Positions 15,678 to 28,175 are shown, counted from the stretch's first letter. The stretch: DNA of 64,000 bases from Chloroherpeton thalassium (GCA_020722095.1 DYLM01000001.1:49152-113151), one strand, 5' to 3'. The notes: generated by a model from the sequence alone, not told the origin. Translations and numbers: made by a program.

Positions 15678-16178
15678 ATGGAAACAAAATACTTTATTAA
15701 TCTCACTACTGGAATTGAAGCTCTCGAGGATTTACATTTTTTTGACAAGAAAGAACTCAACTTTGTTAGAATTCAGTCAAGCCATTGCGAAGCGAGTGCT
15801 TACGAAGAGATTTTGCTTGGATTAGATGCAAACTTTTTAATGTATTTAGCGTTGGGATATACTTGTGTTGTTGTAGATTATGGAGCCCAAAGCCATACTT
15901 CCAAAGCCAGCCGACTGGGGATGGAGTGGATTAGATTTTTTCTGAATAGATTATGGTTGAATAAACGTATCCGTCCCAAAGTGCATCAAGTGGATTTGCA
16001 AGAGATATTTTATGAACAATATACACTTGTTAGCAAGAAAACAAAAAACAAATTAAAGTATTTTAGGAAATTCATTAAAACAGATAGCATAAGATTAATA
16101 TCGCTAACAAAATCCACAATGATAGATGGGCATAATGAAAAATACATAAAAATCCTTGATAATTTTCTTAATACTTAG
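15678..16178 (+). CDS. hypothetical protein, no recognisable domain
   Basis: 166-aa ORF divergent from mutL. A MITE starts 10 bp past its stop. Confidence 0.4.
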   Translation: METKYFINLTTGIEALEDLHFFDKKELNFVRIQSSHCEASAYEEILLGLDANFLMYLALGYTCVVVDYGAQSHTSKASRLGMEWIRFFLNRLWLNKRIRPKVHQVDLQEIFYEQYTLVSKKTKNKLKYFRKFIKTDSIRLISLTKSTMIDGHNEKYIKILDNFLNT

Positions 16179-16891: not shown

Positions 16892-17167
16892 TTAATAATT
16901 TCTTCTGCGATTAAAATTATTCTTAGGCCTCATTTCTTGGGCTTCGCTTACATTTAGCTTTCTTCCCATAAATTCAGTATCATTTAATTCCTGAATTGCT
17001 TTATTGGCAGCTTCATCACTCATTTCAACAAAACCAAATCCACGAGATCTACCTGTTTCTCTGTCGGTAATTATTCTTAATGATTGAGTTTCCCCAATTT
17101 CGTTAAATTTTGAAGCTAATTCTTCTTCGGTTACGCTATGCGGGATGTTCCCTACGTATAATTTCAT
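16892..17167 (-). CDS. RNA-binding protein with an RNA recognition motif (Rbp-like)
   Basis: 91 aa. RNP-2 LYVGNI, RNP-1 RGFGFVEM, basic C-terminal tail. Confidence 0.85.
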   Translation of the reverse strand: MKLYVGNIPHSVTEEELASKFNEIGETQSLRIITDRETGRSRGFGFVEMSDEAANKAIQELNDTEFMGRKLNVSEAQEMRPKNNFNRRRNY

Positions 17168-18896: not shown

Positions 18897-20195
18897 TTAT
18901 ACCCAACCACGCATTTTAACTGCTTCGGCAACTCTTGATATTGCAATCATATAAGCAGCATCTCTCATATAAACATTTCTTTCTTTAGATAAATTATAAA
19001 CAGCGTGGAAAGCTGCAGTCATTTTAGCATCTAATTTTTCTAATACTTCTTCTTTTGTCCAGAAATAGTTCATATTGCATTGAACTTGTTCGAAGTAAGA
19101 AGTAGTAACGCCACCAGCATTAGCTAAGAAGTCTGGAATATCTAAAATTCCACGGGCTTTTATTACTTCGTCAGCATCTGGAGTTGTTGGGCCATTTGCA
19201 CCTTCTACGATGATTTTAACGCTAGGTTTAATCAAATTAACTGTATCTTTTGTAATTTGATTTTCGATAGCAGCAGGAACTAAAATGTCAACATCTTGTT
19301 GAATCCAAGCATTACCATCTAAAATTTCAAAACCGAGTTCCTTTGCTTTTGCTTTGTCGATTTCACCAAATTTATTTGTAATTGTGATTAATTCTGCAAA
19401 AGTAATACCAGATAATTTACGATAAGTATAAGATTTCTTATCTTCGTGATCCCAGCAAGAAACAGCAATAGCTTTTCCACCTAATTTAGTATATTGGTCA
19501 ACTGCATATTGGCTAACATTACCAAATCCTTGGAAGGCAGCAGTAGTTTTTGTAATGTCAATACCCAACACTTTGCAAGCTTCGCGAACAGTGTACATCA
19601 CACCATAGCCAGTTGCTTCGGTTCTACCCAATGATCCACCAACGCCAAGAGGTTTTCCAGTAATGAAACCTGGAGCTTTAGCACCAGTTATTTTTTCGTA
19701 TTCATCTAACATCCAAATCATATGTTGTCCCGTAGTCATCACATCTGGCGCTGGAACGTCTTGATTTGGACCAACATTGCGAACTATTTGGCGAATCCAA
19801 CCGCGAGCGATTGCTTCTTGTTCTCTCATCGACAAATTATGTGGGTCACAAATAACTCCACCTTTACCACCACCCAATGGAATATCAACAACAGCAGTTT
19901 TCCAAGTCATCCACATTGCTAATGCACGAACTGTATCAACAGTTTCTTGTGGATGGAAGCGGATACCGCCTTTAGCAGGTCCGCGTGCGTCATTGTGTTG
20001 TATACGGAAACCTTTAAATACTTTGTAAGATCCGTCATCCATTCTGACGGGAATGTTAAAATGATATTCGCGATCTGGACTGCGAAGGAAGTCACGGGTT
20101 GCTTGATCTAAATTAAGCTTTTCTGCAACTGCATCAAATTGTTGCAGTGCCATATTGAACGGATTGAATGAACTGTCAGCCATTTTATTCCTCAA
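18897..20195 (-). CDS. gdhA: glutamate dehydrogenase
   Basis: 432 aa. PLGGGKGGVICDP signature. Confidence 0.9.
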   Translation of the reverse strand: MRNKMADSSFNPFNMALQQFDAVAEKLNLDQATRDFLRSPDREYHFNIPVRMDDGSYKVFKGFRIQHNDARGPAKGGIRFHPQETVDTVRALAMWMTWKTAVVDIPLGGGKGGVICDPHNLSMREQEAIARGWIRQIVRNVGPNQDVPAPDVMTTGQHMIWMLDEYEKITGAKAPGFITGKPLGVGGSLGRTEATGYGVMYTVREACKVLGIDITKTTAAFQGFGNVSQYAVDQYTKLGGKAIAVSCWDHEDKKSYTYRKLSGITFAELITITNKFGEIDKAKAKELGFEILDGNAWIQQDVDILVPAAIENQITKDTVNLIKPSVKIIVEGANGPTTPDADEVIKARGILDIPDFLANAGGVTTSYFEQVQCNMNYFWTKEEVLEKLDAKMTAAFHAVYNLSKERNVYMRDAAYMIAISRVAEAVKMRGWV

Positions 20196-20390
20196 ATTCT
20201 TTAAATTTTAAAATTTCTAAAAATGTATTTGAAAATTGAATTATTTTCAAATACAAAATTAAACAAAATATTCGAATTTAGTATTATAAAAAAGGAAAAA
20301 ATATCGCTTATATTAATAAAGATTAATTTGTTTATTTCATCAGAATTGCTTATTTTGAACTTTTTAAATTCTTAAAAACCTTTAATTTTT

Positions 20391-23300
20391 ATGAAAACAA
20401 ATTTTCTTGAAATATTCAAACAAACTGACGAAATCTTCCGCTCTTATGATTATACTTTTGATGAAAAAGTTAGGAAAACTCAAAATATTTTTCATAGCTA
20501 CTTTACGTTTATAAAAAGTGTACGTATTATTTTAGACCAAAAAAGCTACGAAACCGATAATTTTTCTGAAACAAGAGATAAAGTGATTAAAACAGCTATT
20601 ATTTCTAATGTTGTATTAGGTATTATCGAAGTTTTCTATGATTCTAATTACAGTATGGATTTTAATAAAGAGGAATTCGAATTCTTTTTTGGACTATTTG
20701 TGGATAAAATTGCCAATTTTGTTTTTATAAATAAATTAGAAAAAACACTTAGAGATATTGAGCAAGAAAAGCGAAATTTAGAAATAAATCATAGAACAAA
20801 ATATGCAATAGTTCTTGATTTACTAAGAAACACTGATAGAAATCTTTACACTATCATTACTCGTAAAATGCTGAATTTCCTATTAATTAAAGGTATTCCC
20901 GAATCAAATTTATATTTTGAAAAACTCGGCACTCGCCTTGATGAAATGACCGATGTAACAAGCGAAATCAATCGTCCATCTAAGAAGCAAGTGCTTGAAC
21001 AAATTTTCTATTTATCTAATGATATTTTCAAATTAGCAGAAAAATACTTGAACGAAGACTTTATTGTCACCCAAATTCATCGTTGGGTAAATGATGAAAA
21101 TGCTAAGCATGTTACCAAAACTCTAAACGATCCCAATACTTCACTCTTCGATATTGGCGAGGCAATTCGTAGATTTTATAAGATGAACCCGGTAGATTCT
21201 AAAGATTCATCTGCTCAATCAATTGGAATGGTTGTATCATTGGTAAGAAGGTTTTTCTCGGAACAATTAGAATTTATTGATATTGCAAAAAATATTTTTA
21301 CAATCAAAGATTTTTATGAATTATTGCCGAGCATAATTTTTGCTTCAGAAAGTTATGGCACAATTGGTGGCAAAGGTTCCGGGATATTATTAGCAGCAAA
21401 AATTATTGAGAAAGAGAAAGAAAATCATCCAATTCTCAAGTCAATAAAAATTCCACGAACTTGGTTCATTCCTTCTGATGGGGAAAATAATTTTATTTAT
21501 TATAATAATTTGGAAGATGTTATTGAACAAAAATATCGCTCATTAGATGAAATTCGCAAAGAATATCCTTACACAATGCAGGTTTTTAAGAATTCACAGT
21601 TTCCAGATGAAGTTATTAACGGATTATCAAGAGTATTAGATGAAATTGGGGATAATCCAATCGTTATTAGAAGTTCCAGTTTATTAGAAGATAGAATGGG
21701 CACTGCATTTGCTGGTAAGTACAAAAGCCTCTTTGTGGCAAACCAAGGCACAAAACAAGAAAAATTAGATGCAATTTTAGATGCAGTAGCAGAAGTCTAC
21801 GCTTCCGTCTTCTCGCCTGATCCAATTAGTTACCGAAAGGAGAAAGGATTTCTTGATTTTAACGAAGGAATGGGAATAATTATTCAAGAAGTTGTTGGAG
21901 TGCGAGCGGGCGATTATTATTTCCCTGCTTTTGCTGGCGTGGGTTTCTCTAACAATGAATTTCGTTGGAGTCCTCGTATTAAACGCGAAGATGGACTTTT
22001 GCGATTAGTTCCGGGATTAGGCACGCGAGCGGTAGATAGAATTGGCAATGACTTCCCAATTTTGATTGCACCTGGTCAGATGAATTTAAGAATTAATCAA
22101 AATTTAAAAGATGCCATTACTTACTCTCCAAGATATATTGATGTTATTAATTTAAAAACAAATACGTTTGAAACTATTTCAATTAAAGATTTGATTAAAA
22201 ATGCTGGTAATCAATTCCCTCTTTTAAATGAAATATTTTCAATAATTGAAGATCACAATATAAAATCTCCAATTGGTCTGGGAATTGACACTAAAAAAGA
22301 CGAAATTATCGTTACATTCAACAATTTAATTACTCGTACTCCATATATTAAGCAATTAAAAGAACTTCTCGAAGTGCTAAAAGAGAATTTTGGACTTCCT
22401 GTTGATATTGAATTTGCTTGCGATGGCAAGAATTTATATCTTCTGCAATGTCGCCAGCAAAGTGCATTTGACTCTGAATTTACTGCATCAGTTATTCCAG
22501 AGAATATTCATAGAGAAAGAACTATTTTTAAAGCACAAAAACATATATCAAACGGAAAAATTCCTGATATTGCTTACATAGTTTATGTTGATCCTGATAA
22601 TTATACAAATGCAAAATCTATCCAAGAATTGGAAGAAACAGCCCGAGCAGTCGGGAGACTCAATCAAACTTTACCCAAACGCAGCTTCATATTAATTGGT
22701 CCAGGAAGATGGGGCACTCGTGATGATATTAGATTGGGAGTGAAAATCTCTTACTCAGATATTAATAATACTGCAATGTTAGTTGAAGTTGCAAAATCCA
22801 AAGGTTCATACACACCTGAATTATCCTTTGGAACTCACTTTTTCCAAGACTTGGTGGAAAGCCAGATTTACTATTTGCCACTTTATCCAGATAAAGAGGA
22901 GACAATGTTCAATTATGAATTTTTCAATAATGCAAATAATACTTTAGAAAGATTTGTTCCTGAATATTCACATATTTCGCACATCTTAAAAGTTATTAAT
23001 GTTCGTGAAGAAGCTAATGGAAGTATTCTAAGAATATTGGCAAATTCAGAGGAAGAAAAAGCAATAGCATTTTTAAGTAAAATTGATGGGAAAATTGAAA
23101 CAGTTGATTCAGATATTTCCAAACCTAATGTTTCGGAAGCTCAAAGCTGGAGATTGAGAATGGCAGAGGCTTTCGCAAATTCCATTGATATTGAAAAATA
23201 TCAAATCAAAGGAATTTACTTGGCTGGTTCAGTGTTTAAATCTCAAGCACGGCCAGATTCCGACATTGACATTTTTGTACATATTAATGATGAATCTCCT

Positions 23301-23492
23301 TTTAGAAAAGAGTTTATTGATTGGTGCAATGGTTGGAACTCTGCATTAGTTAATATTAATTTTAATCGTTCTGGATATAAAATGGAAAAAATATTAGATG
23401 TTTCTGTTTTTGATGATGAGGAATTAAATCAAAATCAATTCTATCAAGATATAATCAATCCAACAAAATATAAATCCAAGAAATTAAGATAA
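20391..23492 (+). CDS. multidomain protein: unknown N-terminal ~300 aa, then a PEP-synthase/pyruvate-phosphate-dikinase-type ATP-binding domain (PPDK_N-like), then a C-terminal minimal nucleotidyltransferase
   Basis: 1033 aa. GTIGGKGSGILLAAKI (cf. GGKGANLAEM); PIVIRSSSLLEDRMGTAFAGKYKS (cf. VAVRSSATAEDLPxASFAGQ); VDIEFACDGKNLYLLQCRQ (end of PPDK_N); C-terminal GIYLAGSVFKSQARPDSDIDIFVHI (GS...DxD pol-beta-type nucleotidyltransferase). No TSH phospho-His swivel and no PEP-utilizer barrel. Confidence 0.6.
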   Translation: MKTNFLEIFKQTDEIFRSYDYTFDEKVRKTQNIFHSYFTFIKSVRIILDQKSYETDNFSETRDKVIKTAIISNVVLGIIEVFYDSNYSMDFNKEEFEFFFGLFVDKIANFVFINKLEKTLRDIEQEKRNLEINHRTKYAIVLDLLRNTDRNLYTIITRKMLNFLLIKGIPESNLYFEKLGTRLDEMTDVTSEINRPSKKQVLEQIFYLSNDIFKLAEKYLNEDFIVTQIHRWVNDENAKHVTKTLNDPNTSLFDIGEAIRRFYKMNPVDSKDSSAQSIGMVVSLVRRFFSEQLEFIDIAKNIFTIKDFYELLPSIIFASESYGTIGGKGSGILLAAKIIEKEKENHPILKSIKIPRTWFIPSDGENNFIYYNNLEDVIEQKYRSLDEIRKEYPYTMQVFKNSQFPDEVINGLSRVLDEIGDNPIVIRSSSLLEDRMGTAFAGKYKSLFVANQGTKQEKLDAILDAVAEVYASVFSPDPISYRKEKGFLDFNEGMGIIIQEVVGVRAGDYYFPAFAGVGFSNNEFRWSPRIKREDGLLRLVPGLGTRAVDRIGNDFPILIAPGQMNLRINQNLKDAITYSPRYIDVINLKTNTFETISIKDLIKNAGNQFPLLNEIFSIIEDHNIKSPIGLGIDTKKDEIIVTFNNLITRTPYIKQLKELLEVLKENFGLPVDIEFACDGKNLYLLQCRQQSAFDSEFTASVIPENIHRERTIFKAQKHISNGKIPDIAYIVYVDPDNYTNAKSIQELEETARAVGRLNQTLPKRSFILIGPGRWGTRDDIRLGVKISYSDINNTAMLVEVAKSKGSYTPELSFGTHFFQDLVESQIYYLPLYPDKEETMFNYEFFNNANNTLERFVPEYSHISHILKVINVREEANGSILRILANSEEEKAIAFLSKIDGKIETVDSDISKPNVSEAQSWRLRMAEAFANSIDIEKYQIKGIYLAGSVFKSQARPDSDIDIFVHINDESPFRKEFIDWCNGWNSALVNINFNRSGYKMEKILDVSVFDDEELNQNQFYQDIINPTKYKSKKLR

Positions 23493-23536
23493 TAATAAGT
23501 ATTGGAACTTTGGTAAATATTCCCATTCTCGTAGGA

Positions 23537-23788
23537 GGTTGTCTCATAAGTCCCAGATATTTCAAAATTGTCATTCCCGTGAAAACGGTAATTTATATCC
23601 TCCCCCTTAATCCCCCTCAAAGAGGGGGAATACAAGGGGGAGGTTCTTATAAAAATATTCAAATTTGTAGTGAGGTTATATCATAAGTCAATTAAATGCA
23701 ACTTATAACATTAAGAATAAGGAATTACGGAGAATTCAAAAGAACTTAGTAGAGCATACATCCTTGTTTGCTAACTTATGAGACAACC
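23537..23788. mobile_element. MITE-like element, left copy of an inverted pair (252 bp; terminal inverted repeats GGTTGTCTCATAAGT / ACTTATGAGACAACC)
   Basis: Perfect 15-bp termini. Internal GUCAUUCCCGUGAAAACGG hairpin remnant and the nested GC hairpin CCTCCCCCTTAATCCCCCTCAAAGAGGGGGAATACAAGGGGGAGG (23599-23643). About 95% identical to the reverse complement of 24911-25160. Confidence 0.75.
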
Positions 23789-23827
23789 TGTTATTTAATT
23801 CTCATTATTTTAGCACAGATAAAGTTC

Positions 23828-23854
23828 ATCTCAAAGATGAGATCTTTTTTTTTT
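23828..23854 (+). terminator. candidate rho-independent terminator (ATCTCA-AAGA-TGAGAT followed by T10)
   Basis: 6-bp stem followed by a 10-T run, downstream of the 1033-aa gene and the left MITE. Confidence 0.4.
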
Positions 23855-23915
23855 ATAAACCTTTTTTTTGATAATTATAATAAAGAATTATTATTCCAGA
23901 TGTGGCACATCTAAA

Positions 23916-23946
23916 TTGACAAAAATATATGTTAAGCCTCTATAAT
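23916..23946 (+). promoter_or_regulatory. sigma70-like TTGACA-N19-TATAAT, immediately preceded by the 15-bp palindrome AGATGTGGCACATCT (23898-23912)
   Basis: Seen in sequence only. It would drive transcription antisense to the cyclophilin gene. In an AT-rich genome this could be chance. Confidence 0.2.
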
Positions 23947-24039
23947 ATAACATTATAGCTCATAAATACGGCGGAAAGGCTCTGTGAAATGTATTTTTTA
24001 CTCTTGTCATCGTATTTTTATCTTCAAACACATTTTTAC

Positions 24040-24067
24040 AAAAAAAAATCCCCGCTTTCGTCGGGGA
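24040..24067 (-). terminator. rho-independent terminator of the cyclophilin gene
   Basis: GC stem TCCCCG/CGGGGA with a 7-nt loop, followed on the minus strand by a 9-U run. Lies about 130 bp downstream of the stop at 24200. Confidence 0.55.
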
Positions 24068-24199
24068 TTAATAATGTATGATTCAATAATAAAAAAACCT
24101 TCCTAATGGTTCAGGAAAAATTCAACACTATGCTTAAGCATAGGGTTGATGGGAGAAACTAAACTTTCGGAAGGTTGTAATATTTTTTTTAAATTAATT

Positions 24200-25261: not shown

Positions 25262-26299
25262 CTATTTGATTTCCCAAGAATCAATTCCTCTCATCAATTT
25301 CTCAACATCGCCTTCGCCAAGTGTAGCTACTGTATCTTCGATTTGTTTGTTGACTAATTCATCGTAAGCAGGCTTATTAACATCAAGGAACACACCAAAA
25401 GGTCTTGGCAAATCATTATCATACGACATCGAGGAAATCATTTGAGCAAGTGCTAAGTTCTTCTCGTTATGGATAATCAATTTATCTTTATTTTCATCGT
25501 TTAATTCTACTTCGGTTGGAGCAAAATTATCAATCAAAATACCTTTTTCTTTGTTCTTACCAAATACAAGTGGCTTGCCATCTTCAATGAAGACTGCATT
25601 TTCATCCATATAATGCTTATCGGTCCATTTATCAAATACGCCATCAGTGAAAATCACACAATTTGAGTAAATTTCAATATAAGCAATACCTTTATGCTCG
25701 GCTGCTCTTTTCATCACATAAGCTAAGTGCTTAGGATTGCTGTAAGTAGTGCGTGCTACAAAAGTTGCACCACTACCTAAAGCCAAAGCAACAGGATTGA
25801 ACGGATAATCAATCACGCCAAAAGGCGAAGATTTAGTTTTTGCACCAACTTGTGATGTAGGAGAATACTGTCCTTTAGTCATTGAGTAGATTTGATTATT
25901 CAACATCAAAATCTTCAAATCCATATTTCTACGGATAGCGTGAATAAAGTGATTACCACCAATTGCCATTGCATCGCCATCACCAGTAATAACCCAAACG
26001 GACAAATCAGGATTAGCAATTTTGATACCCGAAGCCACTGGCAATGCTCTACCGTGCAATGTGTGGAATCCATAAGTATTCATATAATATGGGAAACGGC
26101 TCGAGCAACCGATACCCGATACAACACAGAATTTCTCGCGTGGAATGCCAAGAGTAGGCATTAATTTCTGCAATTGAGCCAAAACTGAATAGTCTCCACA
26201 TCCAGCACACCAACGAACATCAATTGGAGTTTTAAAATCTTTTGCAGTCAATTCAACTGTAGGAATTTTATTTATATTTGAATTATCTATCATTGTCAT
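25262..26299 (-). CDS. korB: 2-oxoglutarate/2-oxoacid:ferredoxin oxidoreductase beta subunit (TPP-binding)
   Basis: 345 aa. CAGCGDYSV ... GDGD TPP motif. Confidence 0.85.
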   Translation of the reverse strand: MTMIDNSNINKIPTVELTAKDFKTPIDVRWCAGCGDYSVLAQLQKLMPTLGIPREKFCVVSGIGCSSRFPYYMNTYGFHTLHGRALPVASGIKIANPDLSVWVITGDGDAMAIGGNHFIHAIRRNMDLKILMLNNQIYSMTKGQYSPTSQVGAKTKSSPFGVIDYPFNPVALALGSGATFVARTTYSNPKHLAYVMKRAAEHKGIAYIEIYSNCVIFTDGVFDKWTDKHYMDENAVFIEDGKPLVFGKNKEKGILIDNFAPTEVELNDENKDKLIIHNEKNLALAQMISSMSYDNDLPRPFGVFLDVNKPAYDELVNKQIEDTVATLGEGDVEKLMRGIDSWEIK

Positions 26300-26303
26300 T
26301 TTA

Positions 26304-28175
26304 TTATTCCTTGTTTAATAATTTAACTAATTCAGTTTCGATTTCTATTGCTGTGAAAGGTTTGCCATGCAATTTGCTGTATGTTATCACATCTCGCAAG
26401 TAATTAGATTTAATTAAAGTGCTTAATTGTCCTAAATTCATTTCTGGAATGAAAATTCTTTTGAATTTTGATAAAATCTCGCCCAGATTTGCGGGGAATG
26501 GATTTAACCAACGCAAATGAACAAATGATAATTTTTCGCCATTTGCAACTAATTTATCAAAAGTATTTTTAATTGCTCCATAAGATGAACCCCAACCGAT
26601 AATCAATAAATCGCCTGATTGTTCGCCTTCAATAACTGCATCTGGTACTTCATTAACAACTCTTGCAACTTTGTCGGCTCTTAATCCACACATTAATTGG
26701 TGATTATAAGGTTCTTGAGTAACCAAACCAGTAATATTTTCTTTTTCCAATCCACCAATTTGGTGCTCAAATCCTTTCATACCTGGAATTGCCCAAGGAC
26801 GAGCTAAAGTATTTTCATCTCTTGAATAAGGGTGGAAAGTTTCTGGATTGTCGGCATATTTAAAATCAAATTCTGGTAATTCTTCCATTGAAGGAACTCG
26901 CCAAGGTTCTGTACCTTGTGCTAAATAACCATCAGTTAATACAATAACAGGAGTCATATATTTTAAAGCAACTTGCGAAGCTTCGTAGCAAGCATAGAAG
27001 CAATCGTTTGCACTTTTTGCAGCAATAATTGGCATTGGAGCTTCGCCGTGGCGACCGTACATTGCCATTAATAAATCACTTTGCTCTGGTTTAGTTGGCA
27101 TTCCAGTACTTGGACCTGCTCTCTGAACATCCACAACCACCAAAGGTAATTCCATCATAACAGCCAAACCCATAGCTTCTACTTTCAACGAAAGTCCAGG
27201 ACCAGATGTAGTTGTACAAGCTAAATTCCCCGCAAATGATGCTCCGATGGCTGATGCAATACCAGCAATTTCGTCTTCGGCTTGGAGGATTTTAACTCCA
27301 TATTGTTTATAACCAGATAAGTGATGTAAAATTTCCGTAGCAGGAGTGATTGGATAAGAACCCAAATATAAAGGCAGATTTGCTTTTTTTGCAGCGGCAA
27401 CTAATCCCAACGCAGCGGCTTCATTTCCAGTAATATTTCTATAAAAGCCTGGTTCGGGTTTAGCATTAGGAATGCTATAATGGAATGTAAATTCAGGTGA
27501 ATTTTTTGCATATTCATAGCCCGCTTTCAAAGCACGAACATTTGACTCGTAAATTTCGATTTTTTTGCCAAATTTTTTGTTCAACCATTTGATTGAATAA
27601 TCCATTGGTTGATTAAATAGCCAGTATGCTACGCCTAATGCAAAAAAGTTTTTAGTTCTTTCCACTTGATTAACAGTTAAGTTCAAATCCTTTACAGCTT
27701 CCTTCATAATATCAGATACACCAATTCCGTGCACTGTATATTTGGATAAAGAGCCATCTTCCAAAGGATTTGATTCATATTTTGCTAAAGTGAGATTTTT
27801 TTGACCAAAACCATCAGCATTAGCAACAATAATTGCACCATCACGTAAATTTGGAATATTTACTTTAAGTGAAGCTGCGTTCATAGCAAATAGAACATCA
27901 ATTTTATCGCCCATAGTGTTCATTTTCTTTGAACCAAAATGGACTTGATAAGCGCTAACACCATAAAGAGTGCCAACTGGTGGACGAATTTCTGATGGAT
28001 AATCGGGAAAAGTATTTACATCTGTTCCGATGATACCAGCGTTATTCGAAAAAAGATTACCTGTGATTTGCATACCATCGCCAGAGTCTCCAGCGAAACG
28101 TATGGTCAAATCATTTGCGATTTCAATGCGTTTTTCCATAACAAAATTTAAAAAATACAAAAAATATATTTTCAA
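26304..28175 (-). CDS. korA: 2-oxoglutarate/2-oxoacid:ferredoxin oxidoreductase alpha subunit
   Basis: 623 aa. Pyruvate-flavodoxin/ferredoxin oxidoreductase domains; adjacent to and co-oriented with korB. Confidence 0.85.
   Translation of the reverse strand: MKIYFLYFLNFVMEKRIEIANDLTIRFAGDSGDGMQITGNLFSNNAGIIGTDVNTFPDYPSEIRPPVGTLYGVSAYQVHFGSKKMNTMGDKIDVLFAMNAASLKVNIPNLRDGAIIVANADGFGQKNLTLAKYESNPLEDGSLSKYTVHGIGVSDIMKEAVKDLNLTVNQVERTKNFFALGVAYWLFNQPMDYSIKWLNKKFGKKIEIYESNVRALKAGYEYAKNSPEFTFHYSIPNAKPEPGFYRNITGNEAAALGLVAAAKKANLPLYLGSYPITPATEILHHLSGYKQYGVKILQAEDEIAGIASAIGASFAGNLACTTTSGPGLSLKVEAMGLAVMMELPLVVVDVQRAGPSTGMPTKPEQSDLLMAMYGRHGEAPMPIIAAKSANDCFYACYEASQVALKYMTPVIVLTDGYLAQGTEPWRVPSMEELPEFDFKYADNPETFHPYSRDENTLARPWAIPGMKGFEHQIGGLEKENITGLVTQEPYNHQLMCGLRADKVARVVNEVPDAVIEGEQSGDLLIIGWGSSYGAIKNTFDKLVANGEKLSFVHLRWLNPFPANLGEILSKFKRIFIPEMNLGQLSTLIKSNYLRDVITYSKLHGKPFTAIEIETELVKLLNKE

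Follow-up and report, generated by a model that had tools for sequence, protein, structure and literature searches.

Gene Locus and Domain Organization

The window considered here is a 64,000-nucleotide stretch of Chloroherpeton thalassium DNA (GCA_020722095.1, DYLM01000001.1:49152-113151), in which the gene for a 1033-amino-acid (aa) multidomain protein, hereafter called the focal gene and protein, adjoins a gene for glutamate dehydrogenase (GDH; Table 1). The focal protein is a member of a large uncharacterized, GDH-linked bacterial family, which combines an ATP-grasp domain of the pyruvate phosphate dikinase (PPDK) type with a novel conserved domain and a minimal nucleotidyltransferase (MNT). 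Its open reading frame (ORF) is complete, with an ATG start and the stop codon included in the given coordinates. It is a real gene and not a chance ORF, because it has more than 1600 homologs in a 90%-clustered protein collection, many of them full length, and because at least 569 species-level genomes in GTDB, nearly all of them metagenome-assembled genomes (MAGs), encode a relative. Full-length homologs from this collection are 43–94% identical to the focal protein, and the gene is apparently chromosomal and present in a single copy.

The alignment of homologs and a whole-protein AlphaFold2 model built from 107 aligned sequences (mean predicted local distance difference test, pLDDT, of 83.2) divide the protein into six parts, the last of which comprises a disordered linker (aa 900–912) and the nucleotidyltransferase that it tethers. 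An earlier sequence-only reading had described the protein as a fusion of a PPDK-type ATP-binding domain with a minimal nucleotidyltransferase, and had named hidden Markov model (HMM) searches, structure prediction, and neighborhood conservation as the ways to check it. The fusion was borne out by Pfam (PF01326 and PF01909) and by Foldseek comparison of the model with PDB structures, which backs both domain calls, while the neighborhood analysis revealed linkage to GDH genes in multiple phyla.

Table 1. Features of the focal gene, its surroundings, and two related loci. Coordinates are those of the window unless a locus is named.
Feature	Coordinates	Strand	Protein region	Evidence
Focal gene, 1033-aa multidomain protein	20391–23492	+	aa 1–1033	ORF call, homologs, AlphaFold2 model
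Sensor-like α/β domain, two helices and four strands	20391–20645	+	aa 1–85	Secondary structure of model, alignments, motif census
Long helix and all-helical domain	20667–21335	+	aa 93–132 and 137–315	Alignment, model
PPDK_N-type ATP-grasp	21360–22478	+	aa 324–696	Pfam, Foldseek, invariant columns
Domain X, novel α/β domain	22479–23090	+	aa 697–900	Sub-model, invariance, no Pfam match
MNT-type minimal nucleotidyltransferase, Pol-β superfamily	23130–23489	+	aa 914–1033	Pfam, Foldseek, conservation
GDH gene, 432 aa, hexameric ~420-aa class	18897–20195	-		Pfam, PDB sequence
AT-rich divergent intergenic region, 195 bp	20196–20390	.		ORF coordinates
Third-class paralog and second GDH paralog, locus L005	12089–15040 and 15485–16837	- and +		Domain architecture, GDH identity
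Histidine-kinase-like gene, 436 aa	17503–18813	+		HATPase_c
Hybrid kinase gene, 1220 aa, loci L001/L002	2401–6063			PAS, HisKA, HATPase, receiver
Two-subunit 2-oxoacid:ferredoxin oxidoreductase	25262–28175	-		POR, POR_N, PFOR_II; TPP_enzyme_C
AT-rich stretch 3' of the focal gene	23493–24199			
Terminator-like hairpin	24069–24047	-		
166-aa ORF	15678–16178	+		
RRM-type RNA-binding protein gene	16892–17167	-		

The ATP-grasp Domain and Domain X Form the Family Core

The ATP-grasp domain matches PPDK_N (PF01326) with E = 1.4e-53 and 182.8 bits, over profile positions 3–315 of 328. The motifs that the sequence-only reading had quoted are all present in it: GGKGSG at aa 326–331, IRSSSLLEDRMGTAFAGKYKS at aa 426–446, and DIEFACDGKNLYLLQ at aa 672–686. 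Eight residues (K328, R427, E433, D434, D672, E674, Q686, and R688) are invariant in all 107 aligned sequences. K328, R427, D672/E674, and Q686/R688 are presumably the ATP- and Mg-binding residues of PPDK-family enzymes, a mapping that draws on alignment with rifampin phosphotransferase (RPH), and by these residues the domain is predicted to be catalytically intact. The best Foldseek match in PDB is Listeria RPH (5hv3, E = 4.6e-14), and the template modeling (TM) score normalized to the target is 0.71 for the isolated ATP-binding domain 5hv6. The nearest solved relative is thus the one to which the domain had been likened from sequence. Next come phosphoenolpyruvate (PEP) synthase (2ols, E = 4e-10) and PPDK (1dik, E = 8e-7). 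A sequence search of PDB gave matches only to E ~ 1e-5, and these covered the ATP-grasp domain alone.

The sequence-only reading had held the phosphohistidine domain to be absent. This stands for the canonical domain: PF00391 was not matched at E ≤ 1, the string TSH does not occur anywhere in the 1033-aa protein, and no canonical TSH-type swivel motif was found among the collected family and neighbor sequences. The region downstream of the ATP-grasp domain is, however, not a linker but a conserved separate α/β domain, which we call domain X; no other part of the protein is as conserved across the family. Modeled separately (aa 697–900), it reached a pLDDT of 89.1 and a predicted TM score of 0.89. 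R773, W774, E799, H816, D820, and E823 are invariant in 107 of 107 sequences, and the family keeps two motifs essentially unchanged, GPGRWG(S/T)R and LSFGTHFF(Q)DL(V)E. In the model, the glycine-rich loop GPGRWGTR (aa 770–777) comes after a β-strand, and the second motif, SFGTHFFQDLVE (aa 812–823), places His816 at the N-terminus of a helix. The catalytic histidine of the swivel domains of PPDK-family enzymes also sits at a helix N-terminus, and this analogy makes His816 a candidate for accepting a phosphoryl group or binding phosphate.

Domain X has no match in Pfam, its family profile found no match among PDB sequences, and Foldseek comparison of its sub-model with PDB gave nothing significant (best E = 0.12), with swivel domains not among the matches listed. 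Since all three comparisons were negative, the identification of this region as a divergent PF00391 domain was dropped, whereas the functional analogy was kept.

Domain X always follows this class of PPDK_N domain, both in the focal family and in two kinds of paralogous proteins described below. The G[ST]HFF motif is found in 120 of 120 homologs, and three paralog classes share one constant spacing from the ATP-grasp domain to GxGRWG and further to G[ST]HFF. Domain X is therefore an obligate conserved partner of the ATP-grasp domain in the position immediately after it. These two domains constitute the invariant core of the family, and the nucleotidyltransferase marks the ~1050-aa class that includes the focal protein. 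The preservation of the ATP-grasp residues and of the domain X arginine and histidine in all 107 sequences argues for real phosphoryl-transfer chemistry.

C-terminal Nucleotidyltransferase

The C-terminal domain matches NTP_transf_2 (PF01909, aa 935–975) with E = 5.5e-6 and 27.1 bits, above the gathering cut-off of 21, and falls just below the cut-off of Polbeta (PF18765, 26.7 vs. 26.9 bits). The best Foldseek match of the C-terminal ~120 aa is a minimal nucleotidyltransferase (2rff, E = 1.6e-3). Weaker matches were obtained to the MNT antitoxins 8xeo, 8xeh, and 7bxo (E between 0.02 and 0.07), the target-normalized TM scores being 0.6 for the first two and 0.4–0.5 for 7bxo. The signature GS-x10-DSDID, which had been read from the sequence, corresponds to G946-S947, ten intervening residues, and D958-I-D960; together with D1003 these are the candidate catalytic residues. 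D958 is kept in 104 of 104 sequences, D960 is an aspartate in 100 and an asparagine in 4, and D1003 is kept in 102, so that the triad is conserved in more than 93%. The asparagine variants (SDIN instead of SDID) are found in P0007–P0010, a clade about 66% identical to the focal protein, and also in the fusion protein P0055; the rest of the protein is conserved in them. To judge from this substitution, some close relatives may have a nucleotidyltransferase without catalytic activity. Three members of the family have no nucleotidyltransferase.

N-terminal Domains

The N-terminal ~300 aa had been described as free of recognizable motifs. This is correct for the sequence in the window, but most relatives keep sensor-like and helical domains here, and in the focal protein the fold is still modeled with confidence (pLDDT 80–91 for aa 1–85). 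Alignments and a motif census show that the focal N-terminus is a sequence-degenerate copy of a domain characterized by the motif ERAKELNCLY, which is lost in the focal protein and its closest clade (P0001–P0013). We call this domain sensor-like because NCBI names some fragments of it “GAF domain-containing protein”; there are two such labels, which are weak evidence. The helical region contains the family-invariant residues D149, K159, N194, P196, W232, L284, R286, and K300, and its helical domain has no match in Pfam. Homolog searches with the sensor-like domain, as well as with domain X of the type found in the mid proteins (see below), returned only short fragments of the same families, with no new architectures and, apart from the two GAF labels, no informative names.

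Conserved Linkage with Glutamate Dehydrogenase

The GDH encoded next to the focal gene is a typical enzyme by sequence (Pfam ELFV_dehydrog_N, E = 5e-54; ELFV_dehydrog, E = 1e-71), and its closest solved structure is the GDH of Pyrococcus furiosus (1gtm, E = 7e-132). The two genes are directly adjacent and divergently transcribed. Alignment of the intergenic region with those of four other divergent loci revealed no conserved regulatory motif, and a sigma-70 scan was not above shuffled expectation.

The homolog loci analyzed first, whose proteins are 64, 51, and 43% identical to the focal protein, showed the same pairing with gdh. We then considered 80 species-level loci, 75 of which extend at least 1.5 kb upstream, and identified GDH orthologs by tblastn with the GDH from the window. 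A GDH ortholog (54–89% identity) lies directly upstream of the focal-type gene in 66 of the 80 loci (75 of them informative). The overwhelming majority of these (62/66) are co-directional, and four are divergent, as in the window. By record titles, the gdh-linked loci span more than 10 phyla, with Ignavibacteria, Kapabacteria, Calditrichia, Acidobacteriota, Zixibacteria, Gemmatimonadota, Myxococcota, Planctomycetota, Cloacimonadota, and Spirochaetes among the groups represented. Where gdh is missing, the neighboring genes are unrelated, and no alternative conserved partner was found.

The commonest gene order is gdh (~428 aa), a gene that we call mid, the focal-type gene (~1055 aa), and a gene for a ~290-aa Metallophos protein. 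The product of mid, found in 51 loci, is a ~580-aa protein consisting of PPDK_N and a variant domain X (GYGRWGSSD ... SQGSHFFHN). In the loci examined, mid and the focal-type gene overlap by 4 bp, and the gaps between gdh and the next gene range from 13 to 200 bp. Natural fusions of the mid and focal proteins, 1625–1654 aa long (P0051, P0055, P0068–P0070, P0077, P0088, P0100, P0362, and P0364), are evidence of the Rosetta-stone kind that both proteins work in a single complex. The metallophosphoesterase gene directly follows the focal-type gene in 34 of the 67 loci with at least 1 kb downstream, almost always alongside mid, and is usually convergent, abutting the 3' end of the focal-type gene; its product has no close solved structure. 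The minimal two-gene form, GDH plus the focal-type protein, is found in the window and also in 16 co-directional and 3 divergent loci.

A third paralog class has a response-regulator receiver and DUF5752 ahead of PPDK_N and domain X (GFGRWG/GSHFF) in a protein of 984 aa. Its genes adjoin (L005, L072) or lie within a few kilobases of the gene for a second GDH paralog, which is 31–36% identical; further examples are L025, L053, L076, L077, and L085. Hence, modules consisting of an ATP-grasp domain and domain X pair with GDH genes repeatedly. We consider a functional link between the family and GDH highly probable, because the synteny is too tight and too widespread to be due to chance.

Family Size, Variants, and Hosts

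An exhaustive HMMER scan of 1.84 billion representatives of 50% clusters yielded 778 matches at E ≤ 1e-30. Some relatives are ~915 aa long and lack the sensor-like domain, and others lack the nucleotidyltransferase. Proteins of ~590 aa and ~765–880 aa contain PPDK_N and domain X only, with or without uncharacterized N-termini, and proteins of 1484–1654 aa have two modules of PPDK_N and domain X. Pfam searches with ten shorter or longer relatives from the exhaustive scan detected PPDK_N only.

According to record titles, from which all host assignments were taken, the carriers include Ignavibacteria/Kapabacteria, Calditrichia, several classes of Acidobacteriota, Zixibacteria, Gemmatimonadota, and Myxococcota, as well as Planctomycetota, Cloacimonadota, Fermentibacteria, Spirochaetes, Eisenbacteria, and Chloroflexota. 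Relatives are found, among others, in MAGs of Ignavibacterium, Melioribacter, and Calditrichia. Several MAG records bear taxonomic labels that look unreliable. Thus, three records titled “uncultured Hyphomicrobiales” (L010, L011, and L013) carry Kapabacteria/Ignavibacteria-like genes, with 49–50% identity to the focal protein, and L011 and L013 have a G+C content of 32–36%; their labels look wrong.

Homologs are named in source databases “pyruvate, water dikinase” or “pyruvate, phosphate dikinase,” among other names. No curated model in Pfam, NCBIfam, or PADLOC and no solved structure covers the full architecture. The only NCBIfam matches were partial ones in the ATP-grasp domain (PEP synthase, PigC/RedH, and rifampin phosphotransferase), 10- to 40-fold under the cut-offs, and a sub-threshold match to MntA. 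In the literature searched, no paper was found on the architecture or on the operon of gdh with a PPDK_N gene. The impression formed from the sequence that the architecture matches no named family is thus upheld.

Other Features of the Locus

On the far side of gdh lies a gene for a histidine-kinase-like protein with HATPase_c. In a relative whose protein is 64% identical, the same position is occupied by a hybrid kinase of 1220 aa (PAS/HisKA/HATPase/receiver), which CheR and CheB precede. This neighbor may represent a lineage-specific signaling link to the gdh locus.

Immediately 3' of the focal gene there is a 700-bp AT-rich stretch without any ORF longer than 72 codons or any match in Rfam; a terminator-like hairpin follows the cyclophilin gene on the opposite strand. 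Over the whole window, Rfam detected one tRNA only. The two-subunit 2-oxoacid:ferredoxin oxidoreductase, 1.8 kb downstream of the focal gene, consists of a 623-aa subunit with POR, POR_N, and PFOR_II and a 345-aa subunit with TPP_enzyme_C. Together with GDH it would make a catabolic route from glutamate through 2-oxoglutarate to succinyl-CoA; this neighbor is not conserved in the other loci examined. A 166-aa ORF without Pfam matches is located between mutL and the gene for an RRM-type RNA-binding protein.

Proposed Function and Alternative Explanations

The anatomy of the family reads as that of a regulated phosphoryl-transfer enzyme, with input domains, an ATP-grasp domain, a domain containing invariant histidine and arginine residues, a tethered nucleotidyltransferase, and a co-occurring phosphoesterase. 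The sequence-only reading had suggested a dual phospho- and nucleotidyltransferase acting on a protein or a small molecule, which is plausible. We tentatively propose a more specific role, which we rate somewhat below an even chance, namely that the focal protein is a signal-controlled, ATP-driven covalent modifier of GDH, acting by phosphorylation through His816, by AMPylation through the nucleotidyltransferase, or by both.

According to this proposal, the sensor-like and helical N-terminal domains would gate the ATP-grasp domain, which would load a phosphoryl or pyrophosphoryl group from ATP onto the adjoining domain X. The most likely acceptor would be His816 in the invariant G-T-H-F-F motif, with the GPGRWG(S/T)R loop binding phosphate, and domain X would then hand the phosphoryl group to the substrate. 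The flexibly tethered MNT-type domain may add a nucleotidyl (AMP) group to the same substrate, which we infer to be most likely the GDH encoded by the neighboring gene, so that the protein would serve as a covalent on/off switch of the kind represented by GlnE, PSRP, or AceK. In the full system, the mid protein would act together with the focal-type protein, and the metallophosphoesterase would presumably remove the modification; the lineage represented in the window would operate with the minimal pair of GDH and the focal protein only. Several of these elements have precedents. In split dikinases, a PPDK_N subunit phosphorylates a histidine on another polypeptide (bioRxiv 10.1101/2022.04.28.489975), the GDH of Thermus is controlled by accessory proteins (PMC12301742), and mammalian GDH is inactivated by AMPylation by SelO (PMC12375108).

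Several observations weigh against this proposal. The connection with GDH is drawn from synteny only. Domain X shows no likeness to the canonical phosphohistidine swivel by Pfam, HMM, or Foldseek comparison, so its phosphohistidine role is an analogy and not a homology. The nucleotidyltransferase is not universally required, because D960N occurs in four close relatives and one fusion and the domain is missing in three members. Many relatives of ~765–880 aa (P0373, P0377, P0416, P0423, P0431, and others) have N-termini of 190–310 aa without Pfam matches and lack both the sensor-like domain and the nucleotidyltransferase. In the 64-kb window, mid and the metallophosphoesterase gene were not found, and close relatives are without them as well; a reversible cycle could therefore not be completed by locally encoded proteins. 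To our knowledge, every characterized PPDK_N enzyme acts on small molecules or glucans and not on proteins.

The last point leads to the first alternative, which we consider unlikely: the ATP-grasp domain and domain X may phosphorylate, and the nucleotidyltransferase perhaps nucleotidylate, a small molecule connected with the GDH reaction (2-oxoglutarate, glutamate, or a signaling nucleotide being the candidates), with domain X as the substrate-binding or acceptor domain and the metallophosphoesterase hydrolyzing the product. PEP synthase, PPDK, rifampin phosphotransferase, PigC/RedH, phenylphosphate synthase, AcvAB, and CreHI, the characterized PPDK_N enzymes, all transfer phosphate to small molecules or glucans; the product of GDH is a 2-oxo acid chemically analogous to pyruvate; the glycine-rich loop and the helix-N-terminal histidine of the domain X model resemble a phosphate or ligand pocket; and consecutive steps of a pathway often share an operon. 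However, Pfam detected no TIM barrel or other recognizable substrate domain, and no known metabolite fits. The only conserved neighbors are a housekeeping-type GDH (60–75% identical across phyla), a phosphoesterase, and a paralogous module; other enzymes of a pathway are not among them, and the input domains (the sensor-like N-terminus and the receiver of the paralog) are typical of regulators rather than of pathway enzymes.

It is rather improbable that the protein controls GDH without modifying it, by binding it, sensing the adenylate or metabolite state through the ATP-grasp, nucleotidyltransferase, and sensor-like domains, and acting allosterically, its own catalysis going no further than autophosphorylation or ATP hydrolysis that serves as a switch or timer. 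Such control has a parallel in the AMP-binding APRT homolog that acts on Thermus GDH (PMC12301742). Some lineages can do without this chemistry, as the D960N variants and the members lacking a nucleotidyltransferase show, and the minimal two-gene form has no eraser enzyme. On the other hand, the ATP-grasp catalytic residues and the domain X arginine and histidine are retained in every one of the 107 sequences, which speaks for real phosphoryl-transfer chemistry, and the metallophosphoesterase that co-occurs in the full system suggests a hydrolyzable covalent product.

A defense function, with the C-terminal domain acting as in type VII toxin–antitoxin (HEPN-MNT) modules and the ATP-grasp domain as an accessory, is very improbable: the fold matches MNT antitoxins and there are weak matches to MntA and to PADLOC PDC-S09, but the MntA model (NF047752) scores 24 bits against a cut-off of 60, PADLOC gave only weak generic nucleotidyltransferase and phosphoesterase matches and none to the remainder of the protein, no HEPN gene was found in the window or in related loci, the sequence-only reading having seen none nearby, and the neighborhood is a housekeeping one, with gdh synteny stable across phyla and the gene apparently single-copy and chromosomal. 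The database names of homologs would make the protein a true PEP synthase or PPDK serving central carbon metabolism; that reading is refuted, in agreement with the sequence-only reading, by the absence of PF00391 and of the PEP-utilizer TIM barrel (no PF02896 match at E ≤ 1) and by NCBIfam equivalog scores of 12–64 bits against cut-offs of 456–883.

In the most far-reaching view, the focal protein would be the signature of a previously unrecognized post-translational control of GDH in multiple phyla, in which a new class of truncated PPDK-type dikinase, with domain X and its His816 as a novel phospho-acceptor, and a tethered MNT domain write a phosphoryl mark, an AMP mark, or both after metabolite sensing and a dedicated metallophosphoesterase erases it; we regard this view as doubtful.

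Implications

GDH stands where carbon metabolism and nitrogen metabolism meet, and how it is regulated in bacteria other than a few model organisms is poorly understood, especially in the largely uncultured peptide-fermenting carriers of this family (Ignavibacteria/Kapabacteria, Calditrichia, Acidobacteriota, Zixibacteria, and others). The conserved operon of two to four genes, present in hundreds of species, is a testable candidate for a dedicated system of GDH control. If the focal protein indeed modifies GDH, it would represent a new regulatory system, the GDH counterpart of the GlnE–glutamine synthetase switch, serving bacteria that rely on GDH for amino acid catabolism or ammonium assimilation. 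The family also shows a PPDK-type ATP-grasp domain joined to a 200-aa domain not described before, whose histidine/arginine site is invariant, and this coupling would widen the range of mechanisms in the dikinase superfamily. In addition, recognition of the family would set right the names of thousands of database entries that now read “PEP synthase,” “pyruvate phosphate dikinase,” or “PEP/pyruvate-binding domain-containing protein.”

Comparison with Known Systems

The focal protein lacks defining features of every family with which it was compared, whether the swivel domain, the TIM barrel, the rifampin-binding domain, the HEPN partner, or a score above curated cut-offs. Rifampin phosphotransferase (Listeria 5hv1, 5hv6, and 5fbs) is the best match to the ATP-grasp domain in both sequence and fold, and its D-x-E and Q-x-R Mg/ATP residues align with those of the focal protein. 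However, RPH has a rifampin-binding domain and a C-terminal swivel histidine domain, both missing here, whereas the focal protein has domain X, the sensor-like and helical N-terminus, and the nucleotidyltransferase; the RPH model NF041857 gives 37.8 bits against a cut-off of 999.

With PEP synthase and PPDK the focal protein shares a PPDK_N ATP-grasp domain with all nucleotide-binding residues and, directly after it, in the position of the swivel domain of PEP synthase, a conserved domain with a histidine at a helix N-terminus. It differs from them by the absence of the PF00391 swivel domain and the PF02896 TIM barrel, and domain X is not detectably homologous to the swivel domain. Split dikinases of the phenylphosphate synthase type demonstrate that a PPDK_N module without canonical histidine and substrate domains of its own can be an active kinase acting on a histidine of its partner, and the full gdh system likewise has two polypeptides, mid and the focal-type protein. 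In split dikinases, however, the canonical histidine belongs to a PEP-synthase-like central domain on the partner, whereas here both polypeptides carry PPDK_N with domain X. No gene for a PF00391 protein lies nearby, the neighbors in the window and the 80 loci being gdh, mid, and the Metallophos gene.

The C-terminus of the focal protein agrees with MNT/MntA of the HEPN-MNT (type VII) systems in fold and in the G[ST]-x10-D-x-D signature with a third aspartate. AMPylation of proteins is known for MNT-type nucleotidyltransferases, and MntA AMPylates a protein substrate. It is a small stand-alone protein paired with a HEPN toxin, whereas the domain considered here is fused to an enzyme of ~900 aa and has a housekeeping context without a HEPN partner. 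The complex of GDH with an APRT homolog in Thermus thermophilus and the action of SelO are precedents for control of GDH itself, although the protein families are unrelated and no such operon has been described for them.

A parallel in logic, not in homology, is with GlnE, GlnD, PSRP/PDRP, and AceK, transferases that covalently switch a central enzyme of nitrogen or carbon metabolism, such as glutamine synthetase for the adenylyltransferase GlnE, PEP synthase for PSRP, and isocitrate dehydrogenase for AceK. There is no sequence relationship to GlnE or GlnD beyond the Pol-β nucleotidyltransferase superfamily, and in the present case the proposed substrate is GDH and the chemistry is putative. 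PSRP is encoded next to ppsA, the gene for its target, and the focal-type gene would have the same relation to gdh if GDH is the enzyme that it switches.

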